A stretch of DNA of 64,000 bases from a bacterium (lineage in GTDB: Bacteria; UBA8248): positions 3,584,001-3,648,000 of the forward strand of contig OY843592.1 in the NCBI GenBank assembly GCA_963692865.2, given 5' to 3'. The position numbers and the translations under genes are program-made. The notes under the pieces were generated by a model. The model had not been told where the DNA came from and did not search any database. It saw nothing but the letters and a program-made list of their open reading frames with translations. Positions 10,212 to 59,471 of this stretch are shown here, one piece after another (the first letter of the stretch is position 1; each line of letters begins with the position of its first letter).

Positions 10212-10650
10212 GAGGTTGTTGAAAAAACCGGCAAGGGCCTTGCAAGCAGAGGGTTTGTAGGGACAGGCCCCCGTGCCTGTCCCTGTGAAGCGTAGCCACG
10301 GGGGGCAGGGCGGCTATCGGGGGCCGCCCTGCTACGGGGGAACGCGCTTTTGATCGTCATTCCGGCGAAAGCCGGAATCCAAGGACTTTGCATTTTGTTC
10401 TTTAGCCGTCATTCCCGGCGAATGAAAGAGGAGAGGGAATGCCTCGAATTATCCACCTCATCGGCTCTGGATTCCGGCTTTCGCCGGAATGACGGTGAGT
10501 AATTTCGATTTGAACTGGAAGGAATCTCCCGTCAGGACAGGCACGGGGGCCTGTCCCTACGTTAAACCACCCCGAAGGATAGGTTTCACTCCCCCTGCCC
10601 CGGTTGACTCCATTCGCCAAATCACGGAATCAGACTTTTTCAACAACCCC
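10212..10650. mobile_element. TIR mini-element with nested GTAG and CGTC REP doublets
   Basis: GAGGTTGTTGAAAAA...TTTTTCAACAACCCC with TCGA on both flanks; GTAG pair 10257/10560; CGTC pair 10356/10493. Confidence 0.72.
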
Positions 10651-20704: not shown

Positions 20705-21140
20705 GGGGCTGTTGAAAAAGCACCTTTAAGGAGGCAAAGGGGCGAACCCGCATGAACCCCGCCCCCCTCGTCGGAACCAACCCCCTATCCCCCCTTGTCG
20801 GGGTTGTTAAAAAACCTGTCCCTCTCGGATCAACTACGTTTTACCTGTAGGGGCCGCATACCATGCGGCCCGGCCTTTTCGCCTTCCCAATACGGGTCGC
20901 ATGATATGCGACCCCTACAATAGAAACGACAATGAAGGCGGTGGTCAATCCGAGCGAAAAGGGGTTTTTCAACAGCCCCTTGTCAGGGGTCAAACGCGAG
21001 TGAGGAACGAGCGTTTGCATAAGCCATTGATGAGAAACACATCGGCTCGCAAAACCTCCCTCTTCGGTCGGTTTTGACCCCTGTCAAGGGGGGGTAGGGG
21101 GGGTTGCCTTTACCCTGCCAGCGGGGTTTTCAACAACCCC
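20705..21140. mobile_element. Nested TIR mini-elements (outer 20705-21140, inner 20800-20979 with TTGTC duplication)
   Basis: Two left and two right TIRs; TTGTC at 20795-20799 and 20980-20984. Confidence 0.8.
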
Positions 21141-23083: not shown

Positions 23084-23188
23084 AGGGAGTAAAGGGGACT
23101 GGAAAAGCAATCCCCCCTTGTCGTCAGGGGAGGTAGGGGGGGTTGCTTTTCGATGAGGGGATCCTCCCGCATCAATCGGGTTTGGTCT

Positions 23189-23352
23189 GTAGGTCAGACA
23201 TATATGTCTGACATATCATGCGGCCCATCGCCGGAGGGGCGAAAAAGGCCGGGTCGCATGATATGCGACCCCTACGGAACGAGACGTAGGGGCGGACCCG
23301 TGTGTCCGCCCGTCGGTCCGACATAGGACAGGCGCGGAGGCCCGTCCCTGCA
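23189..23352. repeat. Cluster of GTAG-type REP hairpins
   Basis: GTAGGTCAGACATATATGTCTGAC, GGGTCGCATGATATGCGACCCCTAC, GTAGGGGCGGACCCGTGTGTCCGCCC; lies between convergent genes. Confidence 0.75.
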
Positions 23353-28679: not shown

Positions 28680-28911
28680 CGTAAGTCAGACATATATGTC
28701 TGACATATCATGCGGCCCTGCCTTTCCTTCACAATACGGGTCGCATGATATGCGACCCGTATTTTCATGCCTCCCACAAATGGGCCGCATGATATGCGGC
28801 CCCTACAAACCCCTCTGCTTTTCTCCTGCGCGGCTTTTTCAACAACCCCGACAAGGGGGGGGGTAGGGGGGGGTTGCCTTTACCCTGTCGGGGGGCTTTT
28901 TCAACGGCCCC
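28680..28911. repeat. REP hairpin cluster with two right-hand TIR copies
   Basis: GTCAGACATATATGTCTGAC and GCATGATATGC hairpins; TTTTTCAACAACCCC (to 28849) and TTTTTCAACGGCCCC (to 28911); 3' part matches 21085-21140. Confidence 0.75.
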
Positions 28912-34567: not shown

Positions 34568-36088
34568 TTATTCGTGCGCGCCGCGCCCGTTCAGGTCGGC
34601 GGGGTCGGTCACCTCGACGCTTCCCTTGAGCCCGAACAGGCGCTGCATCTTCTTCCTGAAGGACGGCGTAAAGAGTTTTTCGGCGTAAAACCGGCCCGCC
34701 ACCCTTTTGTTCACCTGCGCGAGCGTGGGATATACGTGCACCGTATCCACCACTTCCTTGACGTGCATCTTCTTGCGGACGGCCAGCGCGAACTCGTGCA
34801 ATATCTCCCCCGCCGCAGGCCCGACCAAATCCGCCCCCACGAGCCTGCCCTTCTCGTCACACACGACCTTGCACACACCCTCCGTCTCCCCGTCCAGCAC
34901 GGCGCGATCCACCCGGCTCATCGGAAAGCGCAAGACCTGAAAGCGATTCGCCCCCAAGGCGGCCTCGGCGTCGGCTTCGCTCAAGCCCACGTGCGCCGCT
35001 TCGGGCGTCGTGTAAATCGTCCACGGCACGGCGTCGTAGTTCGTCTTTTTCTTGAGAAACGGGAACGGAATCCCGAAAGGCGCGCTGAAGAGCATGTTCC
35101 TGAGCGCCACGCCCGCCTCGTATTCCGCCATATGGGTGAAGAGATATTGCCCTCGAATATCACCGGCGGCGAAGATGCGCGGATTCGCGGTTTGGAGATA
35201 TTCATCCGTCTCCACGCCTCGCGGGGAGTATTTGACGCCCGCTTTTTCCAGGTACATTCCGCCCACGTTGGGCGACCGGCCGGTCGCGATGAGAAGTTGA
35301 TCGCAGGTCCATTCTCTCTTGCCCGACAGCGTATCAGCTTCGAGAAAAATCTCCTCGCCGCGTTTCTCGACTTTTTGCGTCTTCACGTTGAAATGGAGTT
35401 TGAGACCGGATTTCGCCAAGGAGTCAGCCAGAATATCGGCCATTTCCTTGTCGAGCCTCGGCAGGAGTTTCGGCGCGCTTTGCAGCACTTCCACCTCGGC
35501 GCCGAGTTGTTGAAACGCCTGTGACAATTCCAGGCCGATGGGTCCCGCGCCCAGCACCACCATGCGCCGGGGCAGTTCCTCCAAATCGAAAACGGTCTCG
35601 TTCGTGAGGTAGGGCACGCCGTCGAGGCCGGCGATGGGCGGCACGAAGGGAGAACTCCCCATGGACAGTAAAAACCGCTTGGCCCGCAGGGTTCTGTCTC
35701 CTATCTGAAACGTATCCGGACCGGTAAAGGCCCCGTCGCCGAAAATCACCTCGATGCCCATGCCCTCGAAGCGCTCGGGCGCGTCGTGCTCGCCGATATG
35801 GGCCTGGGCCGCCTTCATACGCTTCATGACGCGAGAGAAATCGACGCGCACGTCGCCCACATCAATCCCGAACTCGGGCATCAATCGCGCCTGCGCCGCC
35901 AGCCTGGCCGAGCGGATCAAGCCTTTCGAGGGCACGCATCCATAATTGAGGCAATCACCGCCGAGCTTCGTCTTCTCGACGAGCGCGGCTTTGGCGCCCA
36001 GTTGCGCCGCGCCGACGGACGCCACCAGTCCGCCGACGCCTCCCCCGATGGACACCAAATCAAACTCAGACTCTTTTAGCATCTTCAT
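34568..36088 (-). CDS. Pyridine nucleotide-disulfide oxidoreductase (MerA/Lpd-like, lacking the MerA C-terminal CC)
   Basis: GGGVGG, GGDCLNYGCVPSK, GAGPIGLE and HVYPT motifs. Confidence 0.88.
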   Translation of the reverse strand: MKMLKESEFDLVSIGGGVGGLVASVGAAQLGAKAALVEKTKLGGDCLNYGCVPSKGLIRSARLAAQARLMPEFGIDVGDVRVDFSRVMKRMKAAQAHIGEHDAPERFEGMGIEVIFGDGAFTGPDTFQIGDRTLRAKRFLLSMGSSPFVPPIAGLDGVPYLTNETVFDLEELPRRMVVLGAGPIGLELSQAFQQLGAEVEVLQSAPKLLPRLDKEMADILADSLAKSGLKLHFNVKTQKVEKRGEEIFLEADTLSGKREWTCDQLLIATGRSPNVGGMYLEKAGVKYSPRGVETDEYLQTANPRIFAAGDIRGQYLFTHMAEYEAGVALRNMLFSAPFGIPFPFLKKKTNYDAVPWTIYTTPEAAHVGLSEADAEAALGANRFQVLRFPMSRVDRAVLDGETEGVCKVVCDEKGRLVGADLVGPAAGEILHEFALAVRKKMHVKEVVDTVHVYPTLAQVNKRVAGRFYAEKLFTPSFRKKMQRLFGLKGSVEVTDPADLNGRGAHE

Positions 36089-36142: not shown

Positions 36143-37681
36143 TCAAGACGCTTCCTCAGCCATTGGTTTGAAACCAAACGCGAAAAACAAAATAGCAATG
36201 AGCAGATAACCGGCGGCTATGCCGGGCGCCGCCCCCCACCCGAAGAAGCTCACGACGCCGCCGGGCGTGATCCGCCAGGCGTGGATAATCCCGAACCAGC
36301 TCAATACCGCGCCGGCCAAAGCCCAGCTTCCCGCCTGTTTCGGCTTCTTATCGAGCAGTTTCGCAACGATGGCCGTCAATATGATGGAAGTGAAAAGAAA
36401 ACCCCGCTCCAGGGTGATCATCCCCACTAGATGAAACCCCGCCTTGGCGAACGCGTCCTGCCCTATTTTCCACAAGCTCGCGCCCGCCGCCCGGAGGGAA
36501 GATTCCACCATCAGCAGGCCCCACGCGGCGATGGCGGGTATCAACCCGATGGCCACAGCTGGCCCGTGATTCTTCGGCACGGCCTGAAACGCCTGTGTGA
36601 GCATCATCACCCCTATCCAGAGCATGAGGGCGAAGAGCGCCTCGCCCGGAATGATTTTCGAAAGCGCCGCTATCGAGCCGGTGAAGCAGAGGATCGTCAT
36701 CACCACCCCGTTCAGGGCGCTGTAGCCCGAGCGCGCGCCGACCTTCTTCCAGGCAGGATGTCCGATATATATCGTCGTGGGAAAACAACTACCCAGACAT
36801 GCCGCGAGAAGCGAACCCGCGCCGTTCACCGCCAGAGAACCGCCCGTTTCGAATTCGTCACCCGCAGCTGCCGCACTTTCCAGGCACATCAGACTGCCCA
36901 CAAGCGTCATCAGGCCCATGGGGATGGAAACCGCGAGGTAATCCCAGGCCAGCGGGCCGAAGAGAGCGTCGGCCAAAGGGACGAGGGCGGAGGACGGGAG
37001 CGCAAGGCCAACAGGCGCAGGAACGCCTTCTGGAAATCCCTTGACGAGGGCGGACAAAACCACCCCCGCCGCCACCGCCACGAGGCCGCCCGGCAAACCG
37101 AAGGGAAACCTGAATCCGCCGAAATAATGGAGCAGGATGATTCCCAGAGGCACCATGGAGAGAAGCGGATTTTCCCAGATTCTGAACGCGAAATCCATGG
37201 AAATGAATGTGAGCGCGATGCCCCCCAGTGCCGAGAGCAGAGCGGCCCTTGGCGCAACCCGTCTGATCCACCCGCCCGCCAGCGAGCCTGCTGTTTCGAT
37301 GACCCCGCTCACAAAACAGGCCGCCAGCCCCGCCTTCCAGGCCGCTTCCGCGCTTCCGGTCTTGAGTTTCACGGGGAGCATCACGAAGAAGATGAATGCG
37401 AAAAGCGTCACCGTGTTGAGGCCGTAGGGCATGGCGGTCACATCGTCGCGGCCCTCGCGCGCGGCCAGGCGCCGCGCCTGCCAGGTGTAGAAAAGGTTGC
37501 CGCCCAGAAGGCTCAGGGCCGCGGCGGGCAATACGCGCCCGAAAATGAGAGACTCAGGAAAACCCAGCAGCCCTTTGAGAAAACTCACGATGAGAAGAAG
37601 ATTGATAAGGTTGTCCATCCACAGGCCGAAAAAGCCGTCGACATCACCCTTCACAAACCATCTGGGCATCGGAGTCCCCAT
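36143..37681 (-). CDS. NCS2-like (xanthine/uracil/vitamin C) permease
   Basis: GDVDGFFGL, VTAMPYG, PRAALL and FPTTIYIGHPAWK motifs; many TM segments. Confidence 0.8.
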   Translation of the reverse strand: MGTPMPRWFVKGDVDGFFGLWMDNLINLLLIVSFLKGLLGFPESLIFGRVLPAAALSLLGGNLFYTWQARRLAAREGRDDVTAMPYGLNTVTLFAFIFFVMLPVKLKTGSAEAAWKAGLAACFVSGVIETAGSLAGGWIRRVAPRAALLSALGGIALTFISMDFAFRIWENPLLSMVPLGIILLHYFGGFRFPFGLPGGLVAVAAGVVLSALVKGFPEGVPAPVGLALPSSALVPLADALFGPLAWDYLAVSIPMGLMTLVGSLMCLESAAAAGDEFETGGSLAVNGAGSLLAACLGSCFPTTIYIGHPAWKKVGARSGYSALNGVVMTILCFTGSIAALSKIIPGEALFALMLWIGVMMLTQAFQAVPKNHGPAVAIGLIPAIAAWGLLMVESSLRAAGASLWKIGQDAFAKAGFHLVGMITLERGFLFTSIILTAIVAKLLDKKPKQAGSWALAGAVLSWFGIIHAWRITPGGVVSFFGWGAAPGIAAGYLLIAILFFAFGFKPMAEEAS

Positions 37682-37841
37682 GTTAAATGTCAATACGTCA
37701 AACCGAGCGCGGCGCAACTCACGGGATAGTAAAACACGCAGGCGTGTTCGCCAAAGCGCGCGAGGCAGTTTTTCTCACCCCTGTCGTTTGATATGATTCG
37801 CTAATCAATTATCACCTTCGTGAACGTCGAGGAGAAAAGCG

Positions 37842-38594
37842 ATGGAAGCTGTCAAAGTCTATACGCGCCACGGCTGATACACCTGCGCCCTTACGAGAGA
37901 GTTTCTCTCGTCCAGCGGCCTCGAAGTCGTCAACCGTGACTGCACGAACGACGCCGAAGCGCAAGCGGAACTGAAAGCACTCGGAATCAAATCCCTGCCC
38001 GTCGCCGTGCGCGGAGAGAACGTGGTAGTGGGCTATGACGTGGACGCGCTCCGCGCTGCCTTCGGCATCGAACAAGAAGGCGCAGGTCCCCTCTCCTCCG
38101 AAAAGATGCTCCACTACTTCGAGATGGTCTTCGACGCCCTGCGCCGCGTGGTTCGCCAGATCCCGCACGAAACGCTCGACTGGGTATCTCCCGGCAGGCC
38201 CCGCACGCTGCGCCAACTCACCTGGCACAGCTTCGAGCGTCCGGACCTCGTGATGCAGGCCCACGCCTCGGGGGAGTACACCGAGGAGATGGTGCGGCGG
38301 TATGAAACGATGGCGAACGACTATGATACGACCGAAGACATCTGCGCCTATGGGGATGAAATCCAAGCCAGACTCACCGATTTCCTGACCGACGGCGGCG
38401 AGGCGCTCGCGAAAAAAGTGTCGAGCTACATGGGGCCGATCACCGTGCATGAACTGATGATCCTCTCCCTGGGACACGCTTTCCAGCATCTGCGGCAAAC
38501 CTACCACTACTTCGGAATGCTGGAGATTACGCCGGAAAATCCACTCCAAGCCGAAGACTACGAGGAAGTGCCCGTGCCCAAGGATCTTTTCTAG
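37842..38594 (+). CDS. Probable selenoprotein: glutaredoxin/NrdH-like UxxC domain fused to a DinB-like domain (250 aa)
   Basis: GAGGAG RBS, ATG 37842, MEAVKVYTRHG-TGA(37875)-YTC in frame with ORF 38007-38594; KSLPV cis-Pro motif; His at LTWH and HAFQH. Confidence 0.8.
37893..37911 (+). promoter_or_regulatory. Candidate bacterial SECIS hairpin
   Basis: ACGAGAGA-GTT-TCTCTCGT perfect 8 bp stem with a G-initial loop starting 24 nt after the UGA. Confidence 0.65.
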
Positions 38595-38625
38595 CCCTAA
38601 CTATCAGCTTTAAGGAGACCGCCTG

Positions 38626-39902
38626 ATGCCCTCGAAAGACACGTTTCCCTTCCGCGCAAACCGCGCACGCATGAAGCGCGAGTTCAACGCCAGGCGAAGA
38701 TAGGCAAATACGGGAAAACGGGCCTCGACCGCGTGGCCTTTACGCCGGTCTACAATGAGGCGCGCGACCTCGCCGAGGGCTGGATGAGGGAGGCGGGCCT
38801 CACAACGCTCGTGGACGCCGTGGGAAATCTCTACGGAAGAAAAGAGGGCCGCGTGCGCGGGCTTCCCGCCGTGATGACCGGCTCTCACCTCGATTCCCAA
38901 AGCCCGGGCGGGCGGTTCGACGGACCCGCAGGCGTTCTCACCGCTCTTGAAGCGGTGCGGCGCATCGGCGAGACGGGACTCGCCCACGACCACCCCATCG
39001 AGGTGGTGGCCTTCGTGGGGGAGGAATCCGCCTGCGGGATGACGGTGTTCGGCAGCAGCGTCGCCACGGGCGTCGTGGGCGTGAAGGATTTGAAGAACAC
39101 GGTGCATCCGCCCACAGGAAAATCCCTGTATGAGGCCATCGAGGCGGTGGGTGGAAACCCCGCGCGCACCCGCTCATGCCGGATTAAAAATGGATCGCTC
39201 AAGGCCTTTCTGGAACTTCACATCGAGCAAGGGCCGGTTCTCGAATCGGCCGAGGTGCCCATCGGCATCGTGGACCGGGTGGTGGGATACGCGAGGGGCG
39301 AGGTCCACTTCACGGGCGTTACGGCGCACTCGGGCGGACAGCCCATGCCCTACCGCAAGGACGCCGGCATCGCAGCGGCGGACTTCATGGTCCGCATGGA
39401 AAATTTCGTGAACCGCGCGCCCGAATCCCAGCGCGTGACAATCACATTCGGGGAGATGGAGGCGCACCCGGGGTGGGTGTCCATCGTGCCCGGAGGCGCG
39501 AGGCTTTCTTTCGATCTCAGAAGCAGGAGCCAGGCGGTGATGGAGCGCACTATCGCGCGCATGGAAAAGACGCTCGCCTCCATTGAGAAGGAGCGGGGCG
39601 TAAAGGGCCATCTCTCCGACGTGAAGAAGCTGGCCGTTTGCCCCGCCTCGGGCAACATTCAAAAAGCGCTCCGGCGCGCTTCACGGGAAACGGGCCATGC
39701 CTCTCTCACTCTTTCGAGCGGCGGAGTGCACGACGCCTGCCGGATGGCGGAGATTTGCCCGATGGGCATGGTGTTCATCCCCTCGGTGGGCGGGCTCTCG
39801 CACACGCCCGAGGAATTCACGCACTTCGACGACATGGTGAAGGGCGCGGAAATCCTCGCCTCCGCCATCGCGCATCTCGCCAACGAGAAAGTGAAGGCGT
39901 AA
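38626..39902 (+). CDS. Zn-dependent N-carbamoyl-amino-acid/allantoate amidohydrolase with an apparent frameshift near 38690
   Basis: GSHLDS, GRFDG, GEE, ELHIEQGP, HDA and SHTPEE motifs; AAGGAG-ATG at 38626 is out of frame by one base. Confidence 0.8.
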
Positions 39903-58854: not shown

Positions 58855-59471
58855 GTAGGGGCGGACCTAAGTGTCCGCCCTGTTTGCTTACGCTCTTGCC
58901 GTCCCTGCAAGGGCAAATCTATACGGCCGGCTCGCGAGCCGCCCCTACCAATCCCCTTTCCTCAATCGTTGGAAAAATTAACTCCCCCTTTGAGGGGGTT
59001 CACCGTCATTCCGGTGTGCGCCGGAATGACGAACAAACCGCACCACCTCGTGTAGTGACAGCCCCTCCTCGGGGCTGTCCCACAGGTCGCGACCCCGGAC
59101 AGGCGCTAGGGCCTGTCCGCTACGGTCGCCATCCGAGGGGGGATGCATAGGGGTCGCCGTCGGGATTGACCCACCCGCGCGGCATCGGGCCTCGCAAAAT
59201 ACTTGACGCCCTCATCCCGGTGCCCTGAACCCTCATCCTGAGTAGGCGCGTAAGCGCCGTATCGAAGGATGAGAAGGCATCTCTCCGGCGGGCGCGAATT
59301 TCGCCCTTCGATACGCCGCCTCCGGCGACTACTCAGGGTGAGGCGAAGCGGCGGGCTGCGCAGGACGAGGAGGGGGATTGCGCCGCATCGGACTTTTTCA
59401 ACAGTCCCTTGAGGGGGGAGTGATTTTTATTAACGCGACTATTTCTGGATTCCGGCGTGCGCCGGAATGAC
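58855..59471. repeat. Mosaic of GTAG REPs, CGTC REPs, the CCTCATCCTGAG doublet and a right TIR
   Basis: GTAGGGGCGGAC..GTCCGCCC (58855), GTCATTCCGG (59005), doublet 59231-59343, TTTTTCAACAGTCCC (to 59408). Confidence 0.75.

Follow-up and report, generated by a model that had tools for sequence, protein, structure and literature searches.

Organization of the locus

The window analyzed here is a 64,000-nucleotide stretch of bacterial DNA (GTDB lineage Bacteria; UBA8248; assembly GCA_963692865.2, contig OY843592.1, forward-strand positions 3,584,001 to 3,648,000), and the gene with which this study is concerned, a candidate fusion of a glutaredoxin-like selenoprotein domain with a DinB-like domain, lies on its plus strand between positions 37842 and 38594. 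When the sequence was read and translated, a single frame of 250 codons was found to extend from an ATG at 37842 to 37844 to a TAG at 38592 to 38594, with an in-frame TGA as codon 12 (37875 to 37877). The TGA falls in the peptide VYTRHG-U-YTC, in which U12, the predicted selenocysteine (Sec), would occupy the first position of a U-Y-T-C motif; codon 15, a TGC at 37884 to 37886, encodes Cys15 at the second, resolving position of this UxxC. A Shine-Dalgarno-like GAGGAG (37829 to 37834, plus strand) ends 7 nt upstream of the ATG, and the relatives retain a GGAGA core at the equivalent position, amid an otherwise variable 60 nt. A sequence-only reading of this DNA had proposed that a ribosome-binding site, an ATG, a TGA at 37875, and a frame continuing into an open reading frame (ORF) at 38007 to 38594 together form a hidden selenoprotein, and these elements match base for base. 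It had also named the checks by which the proposal might stand or fall: Cys aligned to the TGA in homologues, TGA kept in close relatives, TGC or TGT in reads at 37875, and selA, selB, selC, and selD in the genome. Each of these checks, where applied, came out in its favor.

We conclude that positions 37842 to 38594 very probably constitute a single 250-residue selenoprotein gene, in which the UGA at codon 12 would be decoded as Sec by SelB and tRNA-Sec with the guidance of a hairpin immediately downstream. With similarly high confidence, the product is predicted to comprise a glutaredoxin/NrdH-like head carrying the U-Y-T-C motif, a short linker, and a DinB/YfiT-type four-helix bundle with a His...His-x3-His pattern.

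Translation table 11 gives a different gene. The ORF that it yields (38007 to 38594, plus strand; GTG start, 195 aa) is the 3′ portion of the 250-codon frame, and database proteins of 190 to 224 aa span just this part. The sequence-only reading had anticipated such truncation by gene callers; among 45 database matches, 1 is full length, and the remaining listed matches cover 62 to 93% of the query, most of them having the DinB Pfam domain alone and a length of 190 to 224 aa. Among public entries of the clade with aligned N termini, 2 reach the active site, both with W at the Sec column, and the others start downstream. These calls are what would be expected if the TGA were a true stop; translation would then start at GTG 38007 and give a DinB-only product, and the glutaredoxin-like sequence ahead of it would be either a remnant in decay or a leader peptide of 11 residues. 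In addition, TGA ends 28 of the 43 long ORFs of the window, more than any other stop. The position of the GTG argues otherwise: it has no purine-rich ribosome-binding site upstream, and it falls within the thioredoxin fold, at the strand formed by residues 54 to 57.

Conservation of the TGA codon and coding constraint

A decaying remnant would not be expected to retain its ATG, its frame, and a single TGA, and yet this is what was observed in the relatives. In a set of 23 related loci, from metagenome-assembled genomes labelled Nitrospinota or Nitrospinaceae, codon 12 is TGA in all 21 loci that reach it, the other 2 ending at contig ends before that codon. When 51 genomes of the phylum were searched in all six frames, the fusion gene was recovered in 40, and each of the 39 matches spanning residues 1 to 250 contains exactly one TGA; 3 partial matches lack the N-terminal part, 2 of them beginning at base 2 or 3 of the contig. 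In one phylum genome (G047), the fusion is present twice; the additional full-length copy (contig C20, positions 672 to 1436) is the more divergent (E = 4.9e-88) and likewise has one in-frame TGA. A profile scan added 15 loci at 51 to 66% identity, all 15 with the TGA, and the distant TGA-bearing loci include some labelled Candidatus Tectomicrobia and Candidatus Sulfotelmatobacter. Over all aligned loci the TGA is invariant (33 of 33), so that, on both the full-length phylum matches and the aligned loci, close relatives keep it.

The substitution pattern, determined against 20 relatives, points to a coding region on either side of the TGA. The counts were added up pair by pair over 20 related loci, and independent events are fewer than the figures suggest; with this proviso, codons 1 to 11 show 61 differing sites, of which 56 are third positions, with 52 synonymous and 5 nonsynonymous codon changes, and codons 13 to 55, between the TGA and the annotated GTG, show 314 differing sites, of which 246 are third positions, with 230 synonymous and 46 nonsynonymous changes. 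In the 60 nt upstream of the ATG, 57 of 60 columns are variable. The excess of synonymous changes between the TGA and the GTG is difficult to reconcile with termination at codon 12.

Among the rows listed, assembled read data gave no TGC or TGT at 37875, which argues against an assembly error. Logan contigs from three runs (X1 to X3) are identical to the window over positions 37700 to 38691, these runs being from one study that is possibly the window's own source. In a run from another study (X5), at approximately 89% identity, the codon at 37875 to 37877 is unchanged among the rows listed.

A SECIS-like hairpin downstream of the TGA codon

Beginning 15 nt 3′ of the UGA, positions 37893 to 37911 can form a hairpin of 8 perfect pairs, in which ACGAGAGA (37893 to 37900) pairs with UCUCUCGU (37904 to 37911) across a GUU loop (37901 to 37903); the loop G is the 24th base past the UGA. 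A perfect 8-bp hairpin with a G-initial loop at this distance was part of the sequence-only reading and was found as stated. The bacterial Sec insertion sequence (SECIS) is described (PMC1088965) as a stem-loop that closely follows the UGA and has a G in its small apical loop, and the shape of the hairpin agrees with that description. Within the window, a perfect 8-bp hairpin starting 8 to 25 nt downstream follows 12 of 837 TGA triplets.

Across 29 distinct sequences, the eight hairpin pairs can form in 96.1% of cells, and pairing falls to 33 to 72% when the 3′ partners are slid by 1 to 3 columns. One pair shows a compensatory change from G-C to A-U in 5 sequences, in which an Arg-to-Lys replacement is coupled with a synonymous Leu change; a second pair changes from C-G to U-A in 1 sequence, and another pair changes from A-U to G-U in 6.

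Several observations weigh against reading this hairpin, and with it the TGA, as a functional Sec signal. The minimum free energy of positions 37875 to 37935 is −17.6 kcal/mol compared with −12.85 ± 2.73 for shuffled sequences (z = −1.74), and equally good folds were obtained in 9 of 200 shuffles of the hairpin region. The covariation is confined to two pairs, and 85 of 500 shuffles had as many pairs with a change in both partners. The hairpin also overlaps a conserved peptide, [TM]-[RK]-E-F-L-S, so that part of its conservation is due to coding, and among the sequencing runs listed no RNA run is on record. We regard fold energy alone as weak evidence for the hairpin; the case for it rests on the comparison with relatives. 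In that comparison, Sec forms pair at a mean of 7.69 of 8 positions (minimum, 6), whereas the Cys forms (78 distinct sequences), a stronger control than the covariation test but one drawn from other phyla with different codon usage, pair at a mean of 2.9 (maximum, 5). The Cys forms encode a similar K-E-F-L peptide at the hairpin position but pair poorly; therefore, the hairpin tracks the TGA and not the peptide. A hairpin specific to TGA forms is not what would be predicted if codon 12 were a stop, and, taken with the position of the GTG and the conservation described above, it leaves the termination of translation at this codon very improbable.

Selenocysteine machinery and genetic code

The machinery that Sec insertion would require is present in the genome. 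A tRNA-Sec was detected at two places with 76.7 bits and was called by ARAGORN as tRNA-SeC with the anticodon tca; selA (567.2 bits) adjoins selB (391.7 bits), and selD scored 334.6 bits. All four exceed their curated cut-offs, and thus the complete set of selA, selB, selC, and selD was found. The selD gene (C1:65915-66877) itself has one in-frame TGA, in the context VKAGG-U-GSKLGPEDL, and the stretch that follows this codon folds strongly (−26.4 kcal/mol over 60 nt), so that selD probably supplies a second Sec codon in this genome.

It could be argued that Trp, Cys, or Gly, and not Sec, is inserted at the TGA, either by near-cognate decoding or through a changed code, and two database entries (P0014 and P0073) do show W at the codon 12 column. 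The probability of this alternative is in our judgment very small. The use of TGA to terminate 28 of the 43 long ORFs in the window makes a reassigned code unlikely; furthermore, the genome has both a complete Sec machinery and a selD match with an in-frame TGA, in homologues the column in question holds the catalytic Cys of CxxC, and the codon is followed by a hairpin specific to TGA forms. Taken together with the conservation data, these results indicate that the fusion selenoprotein is real but misannotated and that standard annotation removes its active site.

Domain organization and predicted fold

The proposal of a glutaredoxin-like domain fused to a DinB-like domain was upheld by two Pfam matches that pass their gathering scores and by the predicted fold. 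Glutaredoxin (PF00462) matches residues 4 to 56 with 34.3 bits (gathering cut-off, 22.9; E = 2.8e-8), and DinB_2 (PF12867) matches residues 93 to 219 with 29.3 bits (gathering cut-off, 24.8; E = 1.3e-6), over profile positions 2 to 127 of 128. An AlphaFold model of the fusion was obtained with good confidence (pLDDT, 86.6; pTM, 0.78). No NCBIfam model spans the fusion, and the glutaredoxin-like NCBIfam matches (YruB, NrdH, and UXX-star) are all below threshold.

Pfam, the PDB sequence match, and Foldseek together place a glutaredoxin/NrdH-like thioredoxin-fold domain at about residues 4 to 74 (37851 to 38063, plus strand). In the model, a helix formed by residues 13 to 24 follows directly after U12, and the motif therefore stands at the start of helix 1. 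P53, a residue of the cis-Pro type, is invariant in the Sec-clade alignments and, like C15, is conserved across forms. The N-terminal domain matches 7c10 by sequence (E = 7.5e-12, residues 3 to 79), and Foldseek aligned it to 7c10_B with a TMt of 0.89 and 39% identity.

The DinB_2 four-helix-bundle domain occupies residues 93 to 219 (38118 to 38498, plus strand), as supported by both Pfam and Foldseek. Foldseek matched this body with a probability of 1.00 to 6iz2, 2p1a, 1rxq, and 8f5v, with TMt values of 0.83 for 6iz2, 0.67 for 1rxq, and 0.66 for 8f5v; 2nsf was also matched. The sequence-only reading had noted that DinB proteins use three His residues for metal binding, and three candidate His residues, with H-x3-H spacing, are conserved in four alignments through the Sec, Cys, and truncated forms: His129 (CAC, 38226 to 38228), His212 (CAC, 38475 to 38477), and His216 (CAT, 38487 to 38489). 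H129, H212, and H216 are invariant in the Sec-clade alignments, and the position matching His129 is almost always His among 36 Cys forms and without exception among 30 truncated forms.

Cysteine homologues and family history

A profile built from eight full-length translations was searched against 1.84 billion cluster representatives and found 907 proteins at E ≤ 1e-3, of which 232 reached E ≤ 1e-10. Among the 52 listed matches that include the N terminus, 50 have Cys at the U12 column, in the motif C-[ST]-S-C; the remaining two are the W-bearing entries mentioned above (P0014 and P0073), in which the TGA was called as Trp by a gene caller. C15 is invariant in all 52. A further 50 top matches all start inside the glutaredoxin-like domain, downstream of the motif. 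Such starts are what truncation at a TGA would yield, and the putative Sec status of these proteins rests on the position at which they start.

At least 572 Cys-form stretches were found in species genomes, and in each of the 80 loci taken from them the U12 column is Cys. These 80 loci are distributed among the Alpha-, Beta-, and Gammaproteobacteria, Nitrospira, and Longimicrobiales, and they include members of the Rhodospirillaceae, Pelagibacteraceae, and Burkholderiales. Cultured carriers of the Cys form are found in the Burkholderiales (Paraburkholderia, Caballeronia, and Acidovorax).

A quick maximum-likelihood tree of 90 rows, constructed from the columns common to all forms with the motif region trimmed out, places the window in a starred clade of 26 rows, all of them Sec or truncated forms; elsewhere in the tree, truncated forms are mixed with Cys forms. 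To account for the starred branches, at least 4 changes between the Sec and Cys states are needed, and the parsimony count is 13, truncation being used as a proxy for Sec in both figures; with this proxy and an unrooted tree, gain is not separable from loss.

Gene neighborhood and other features of the window

An M20 amidase gene of the hydantoinase/carbamoylase family (38626 to 39902, plus strand) begins 31 nt past the selenoprotein stop and is probably cotranscribed with the selenoprotein gene. Sec-form loci have it beside the fusion gene in 21 of 23 and 6 of 11 cases, and the 80 Cys-form loci in none. In the window this gene is frameshifted (38626 to 38735): ATG 38626 opens a 25-codon frame that ends at a TAG (38701 to 38703), and the rest continues from GTG 38733. 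The gene is uninterrupted in the relatives L025, L038, L040, L043, L176, L179, and L185 (MPSKD...EFNAQA.IGKYGKTGL...), the window being one base short near 38690. X5 has the base that the window lacks, and runs X1 to X3 agree with the window up to 38691 and in the loose ends of their contigs.

On the minus strand, a gene for a 524-aa multipass membrane protein (36143 to 37717) is divergent from the selenoprotein gene; no Pfam or NCBIfam match was obtained for its product at E ≤ 1e-5. It stands beside the fusion gene in most loci of the clade, with the exception of L038 and L040. Two genes upstream of the selenoprotein gene, also on the minus strand, is a class I FAD disulfide oxidoreductase with a CLNYGC motif (34568 to 36088), which adjoins a 2-oxoacid dehydrogenase E2 gene. 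Among NCBIfam models it matches "FAD-containing oxidoreductase" best (493.5 bits), whereas its scores for MerA, lipoamide dehydrogenase, and glutathione reductase do not reach the cut-offs. This enzyme could reduce disulfides; nothing links it to the selenoprotein.

Gene context was considered as a guide to function and was rejected, since the neighbors are syntenic in close relatives only and are absent from more distant loci. In the Sec clade, the neighbors are the class I FAD disulfide-reductase-like gene, the 524-aa membrane protein gene, and the M20 amidase gene. Around the Cys forms, the commonest neighbor cluster is TctC (18 of 80 loci), others being LysR, SDR, acyl-CoA dehydrogenase, GntR, and PrpD-like proteins; ORF calling in these neighborhoods was crude, the fusion family itself having been recovered in only 55 of the 80 loci.

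Elsewhere in the window, short perfect palindromes are clustered in apparently intergenic stretches (10255 to 10560, 20845 to 20910, 23188 to 23310, 28680 to 28800, and 59000 to 59110). Examples are GGGTCGCATGATATGCGACCC, GTCAGACATATATGTCTGAC, GGGACAGGC...GCCTGTCCC, and CATTCCGGC...GCCGGAATG, often flanked by GTAGGG/CCCTAC, and they look like a REP-like repeat family.

Possible mechanism

The sequence-only reading had suggested a Sec-dependent redox module coupled to a thiol-transferase-like domain, and from the domains that are joined, we likewise infer that the enzyme would carry out either a Sec-based redox reaction or a thiol transfer at the three-His site of the DinB domain. U12 stands at the position from which oxidoreductases of the thioredoxin fold attack, and the DinB bundle would supply a His3 metal site like the one by which YfiT-type transferases activate thiols. 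The scheme that we put forward tentatively, and that may well prove incorrect in its specifics, has the U12 selenolate acting on a substrate at that site, with recycling through the product of trxB. In this scheme, H129, H212, and H216 would bind a divalent metal, as the three His residues do in the YfiT and mycothiol S-transferase structures, and the resulting metal center would hold or activate an electrophilic or oxidized substrate. The U12 selenolate, at the attacking position of the UxxC, would then react with the metal-held substrate, and Cys15 would resolve the U12 adduct to give a selenenylsulfide. The oxidized UxxC may be rereduced by thioredoxin reductase and not by glutathione, and the tethered redoxin may stand in for, or recycle, the low-molecular-weight thiol of stand-alone DinB transferases.

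Thioredoxin reductase is favored over glutathione as the reductant because trxB exceeds its cut-off in the genome and canonical genes for glutathione synthesis were not seen. In this genome, rated 97% complete, gshB reached only 77.5 of the 299 bits required, and there was no match to two gshA models, other gshA types and the fused GshF lying outside the search. These findings would also fit a tethered redoxin that takes the place of a free thiol cofactor. The limited range of the gshA search tells against the scheme, as does the gene neighborhood, in which neither the Sec-form loci nor the 80 Cys-form loci gave a consistent functional hint. The genome has nine other DinB_2 matches, none with a glutaredoxin-like head.

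A bolder version of this scheme makes the fusion self-sufficient: it would do the work of a DinB thiol S-transferase without a cofactor, the tethered Sec (Cys elsewhere) itself being the nucleophile at the three-His metal center and being recycled directly by thioredoxin reductase. We consider this version unlikely. If it were true, the enzyme would have no need of glutathione, mycothiol, or bacillithiol; the fusion would be a convergent design of two domains, like that of glutathione S-transferase (GST), and would connect selenium with the DinB superfamily for the first time; and the design would be widespread, with Sec and Cys repeatedly exchanged.

The same Sec gene could also serve another chemistry, in which the UxxC is a metal(loid)-binding or sensing site and does not act as nucleophile in a transferase or reductase cycle. 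A soft metal, selenium, or arsenic species might, for example, be handed to the His-lined pocket of the DinB domain, or the motif might act as a redox switch on that domain. Table 1 of PMC13188914 classes several selenoproteins with Sec/Cys motifs as metal binding or organometallic, metal is bound through three His residues in the DinB fold (according to the titles of 1rxq, 2p1a, and 8f5v), and the uninformative gene context leaves room for such a role. The head is a regular Grx/NrdH-like redoxin, and its motif at the start of helix 1 and its invariant P53 are the hallmark of disulfide exchange; moreover, no metal resistance genes were conserved beside the fusion gene at the loci examined. On balance, a metal(loid) role is improbable, and a redox or transfer reaction of U12 on a substrate at the metal site is the simplest explanation.

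Novelty and significance

The kind of protein described here is well known: it is a UxxC thioredoxin-fold selenoprotein that has been overlooked by gene callers. The glutaredoxin-DinB fusion appears to be a new architecture among such selenoproteins. It is absent from the 119 selenoprotein families in Table 1 of a 2026 review (PMC13188914), in which free-standing Grx is listed and no DinB-containing family appears, and the text of that paper mentions neither the DinB Pfams (PF12867 and PF05163) nor related thiol transferase terms. The fusion is likewise not mentioned in the available part of the deep-Sep paper (PMC12013277). A full-text literature search returned no description of a DinB selenoprotein or of a DinB-glutaredoxin fusion, a prior listing in the BSepDB family table being possible, and no paper was found that describes the wider Grx-DinB family. 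According to the BSepDB paper (PMC13326102), Nitrospinota-labelled genomes, including the source of locus L046, are among the bacteria richest in selenoprotein genes.

As a consequence of the truncated entries, profile searches and metabolic reconstructions see a "DinB family protein" alone. The main interest of these findings lies in a large, uncharacterized Grx-DinB family: residue 12 is singled out by the Sec forms as the catalytic center, and with Cys forms available in cultured strains, what the family does can be tested directly.

Comparison with known systems

The closest known relatives of the head are free-standing redoxins. Table 1 of PMC13188914 gives selenoprotein glutaredoxin (Grx, PF00462, UxxC) as experimentally verified. 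Like the fusion, it has a thioredoxin fold, Sec as the first residue of a UxxC where helix 1 begins, and a SECIS hairpin just past the UGA; unlike the fusion, which has 250 residues and a DinB body, selenoprotein Grx and 7c10 are free-standing proteins of 73 to 92 residues. The nearest solved chain to the head is 7c10/7c12, "Dithiol cGrx1," in which the aligned motif is C-P-H-C, compared with U-Y-T-C in the fusion and U-F-S-C or U-F-T-C in the distant Sec forms.

Redoxins of the NrdH and YruB types (TIGR02194 and TIGR02196) give the best NCBIfam matches of the head; the two scores, 46.3 and 38.5 bits, lie far below the respective curated cut-offs of 88.55 and 85.75 bits, so that the head may at most function in a similar way and is not classed with either. 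In Foldseek, the head matches the NrdH structures 1h75, 4fiw, and 4hs1. NrdH is reduced by thioredoxin reductase, and a similar reduction of the fusion would fit this genome, because trxB is present and gshA and gshB were not detected. Unlike NrdH, the head has Sec in place of Cys, is fused to another domain, and has no ribonucleotide reductase context at its locus. The UXX-star selenoproteins (NF041212, NF041114, NF041211, and NF047338) are more distant: the fusion scores 37.9 bits where 66 are required and does less well with the other models, and their Sec lies three residues from the C terminus, whereas that of the fusion is residue 12 of 250.

The body of the fusion has the four-helix bundle and the His...His-x3-His pattern in common with the DinB/YfiT metalloenzymes, which include YfiT (1rxq), mycothiol S-transferase (8f5v and 8fx9), mycothiol-dependent maleylpyruvate isomerase (2nsf), and DR0053 (6iz2). 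Sequence identity to these structures is 14 to 18%, and no DinB chain in the PDB matches the fusion by sequence at E ≤ 1. These enzymes use a free low-molecular-weight thiol, whereas the fusion carries its own Sec redoxin domain.

Finally, the order of domains is reminiscent of GST and Grx2, which have the same layout of a thiol-handling thioredoxin-fold head followed by an all-helical body. Foldseek aligned GST-like chains (GDAP1, SspA, and the Grx2 structure 7tbs) with the fusion over approximately 250 columns, at a root mean square deviation of 10 to 16 Å and TM scores of 0.3 to 0.4. On this comparison, the resemblance to GST is one of layout only, and the helical body of the fusion is best regarded as a DinB bundle and not as a GST C-terminal domain.

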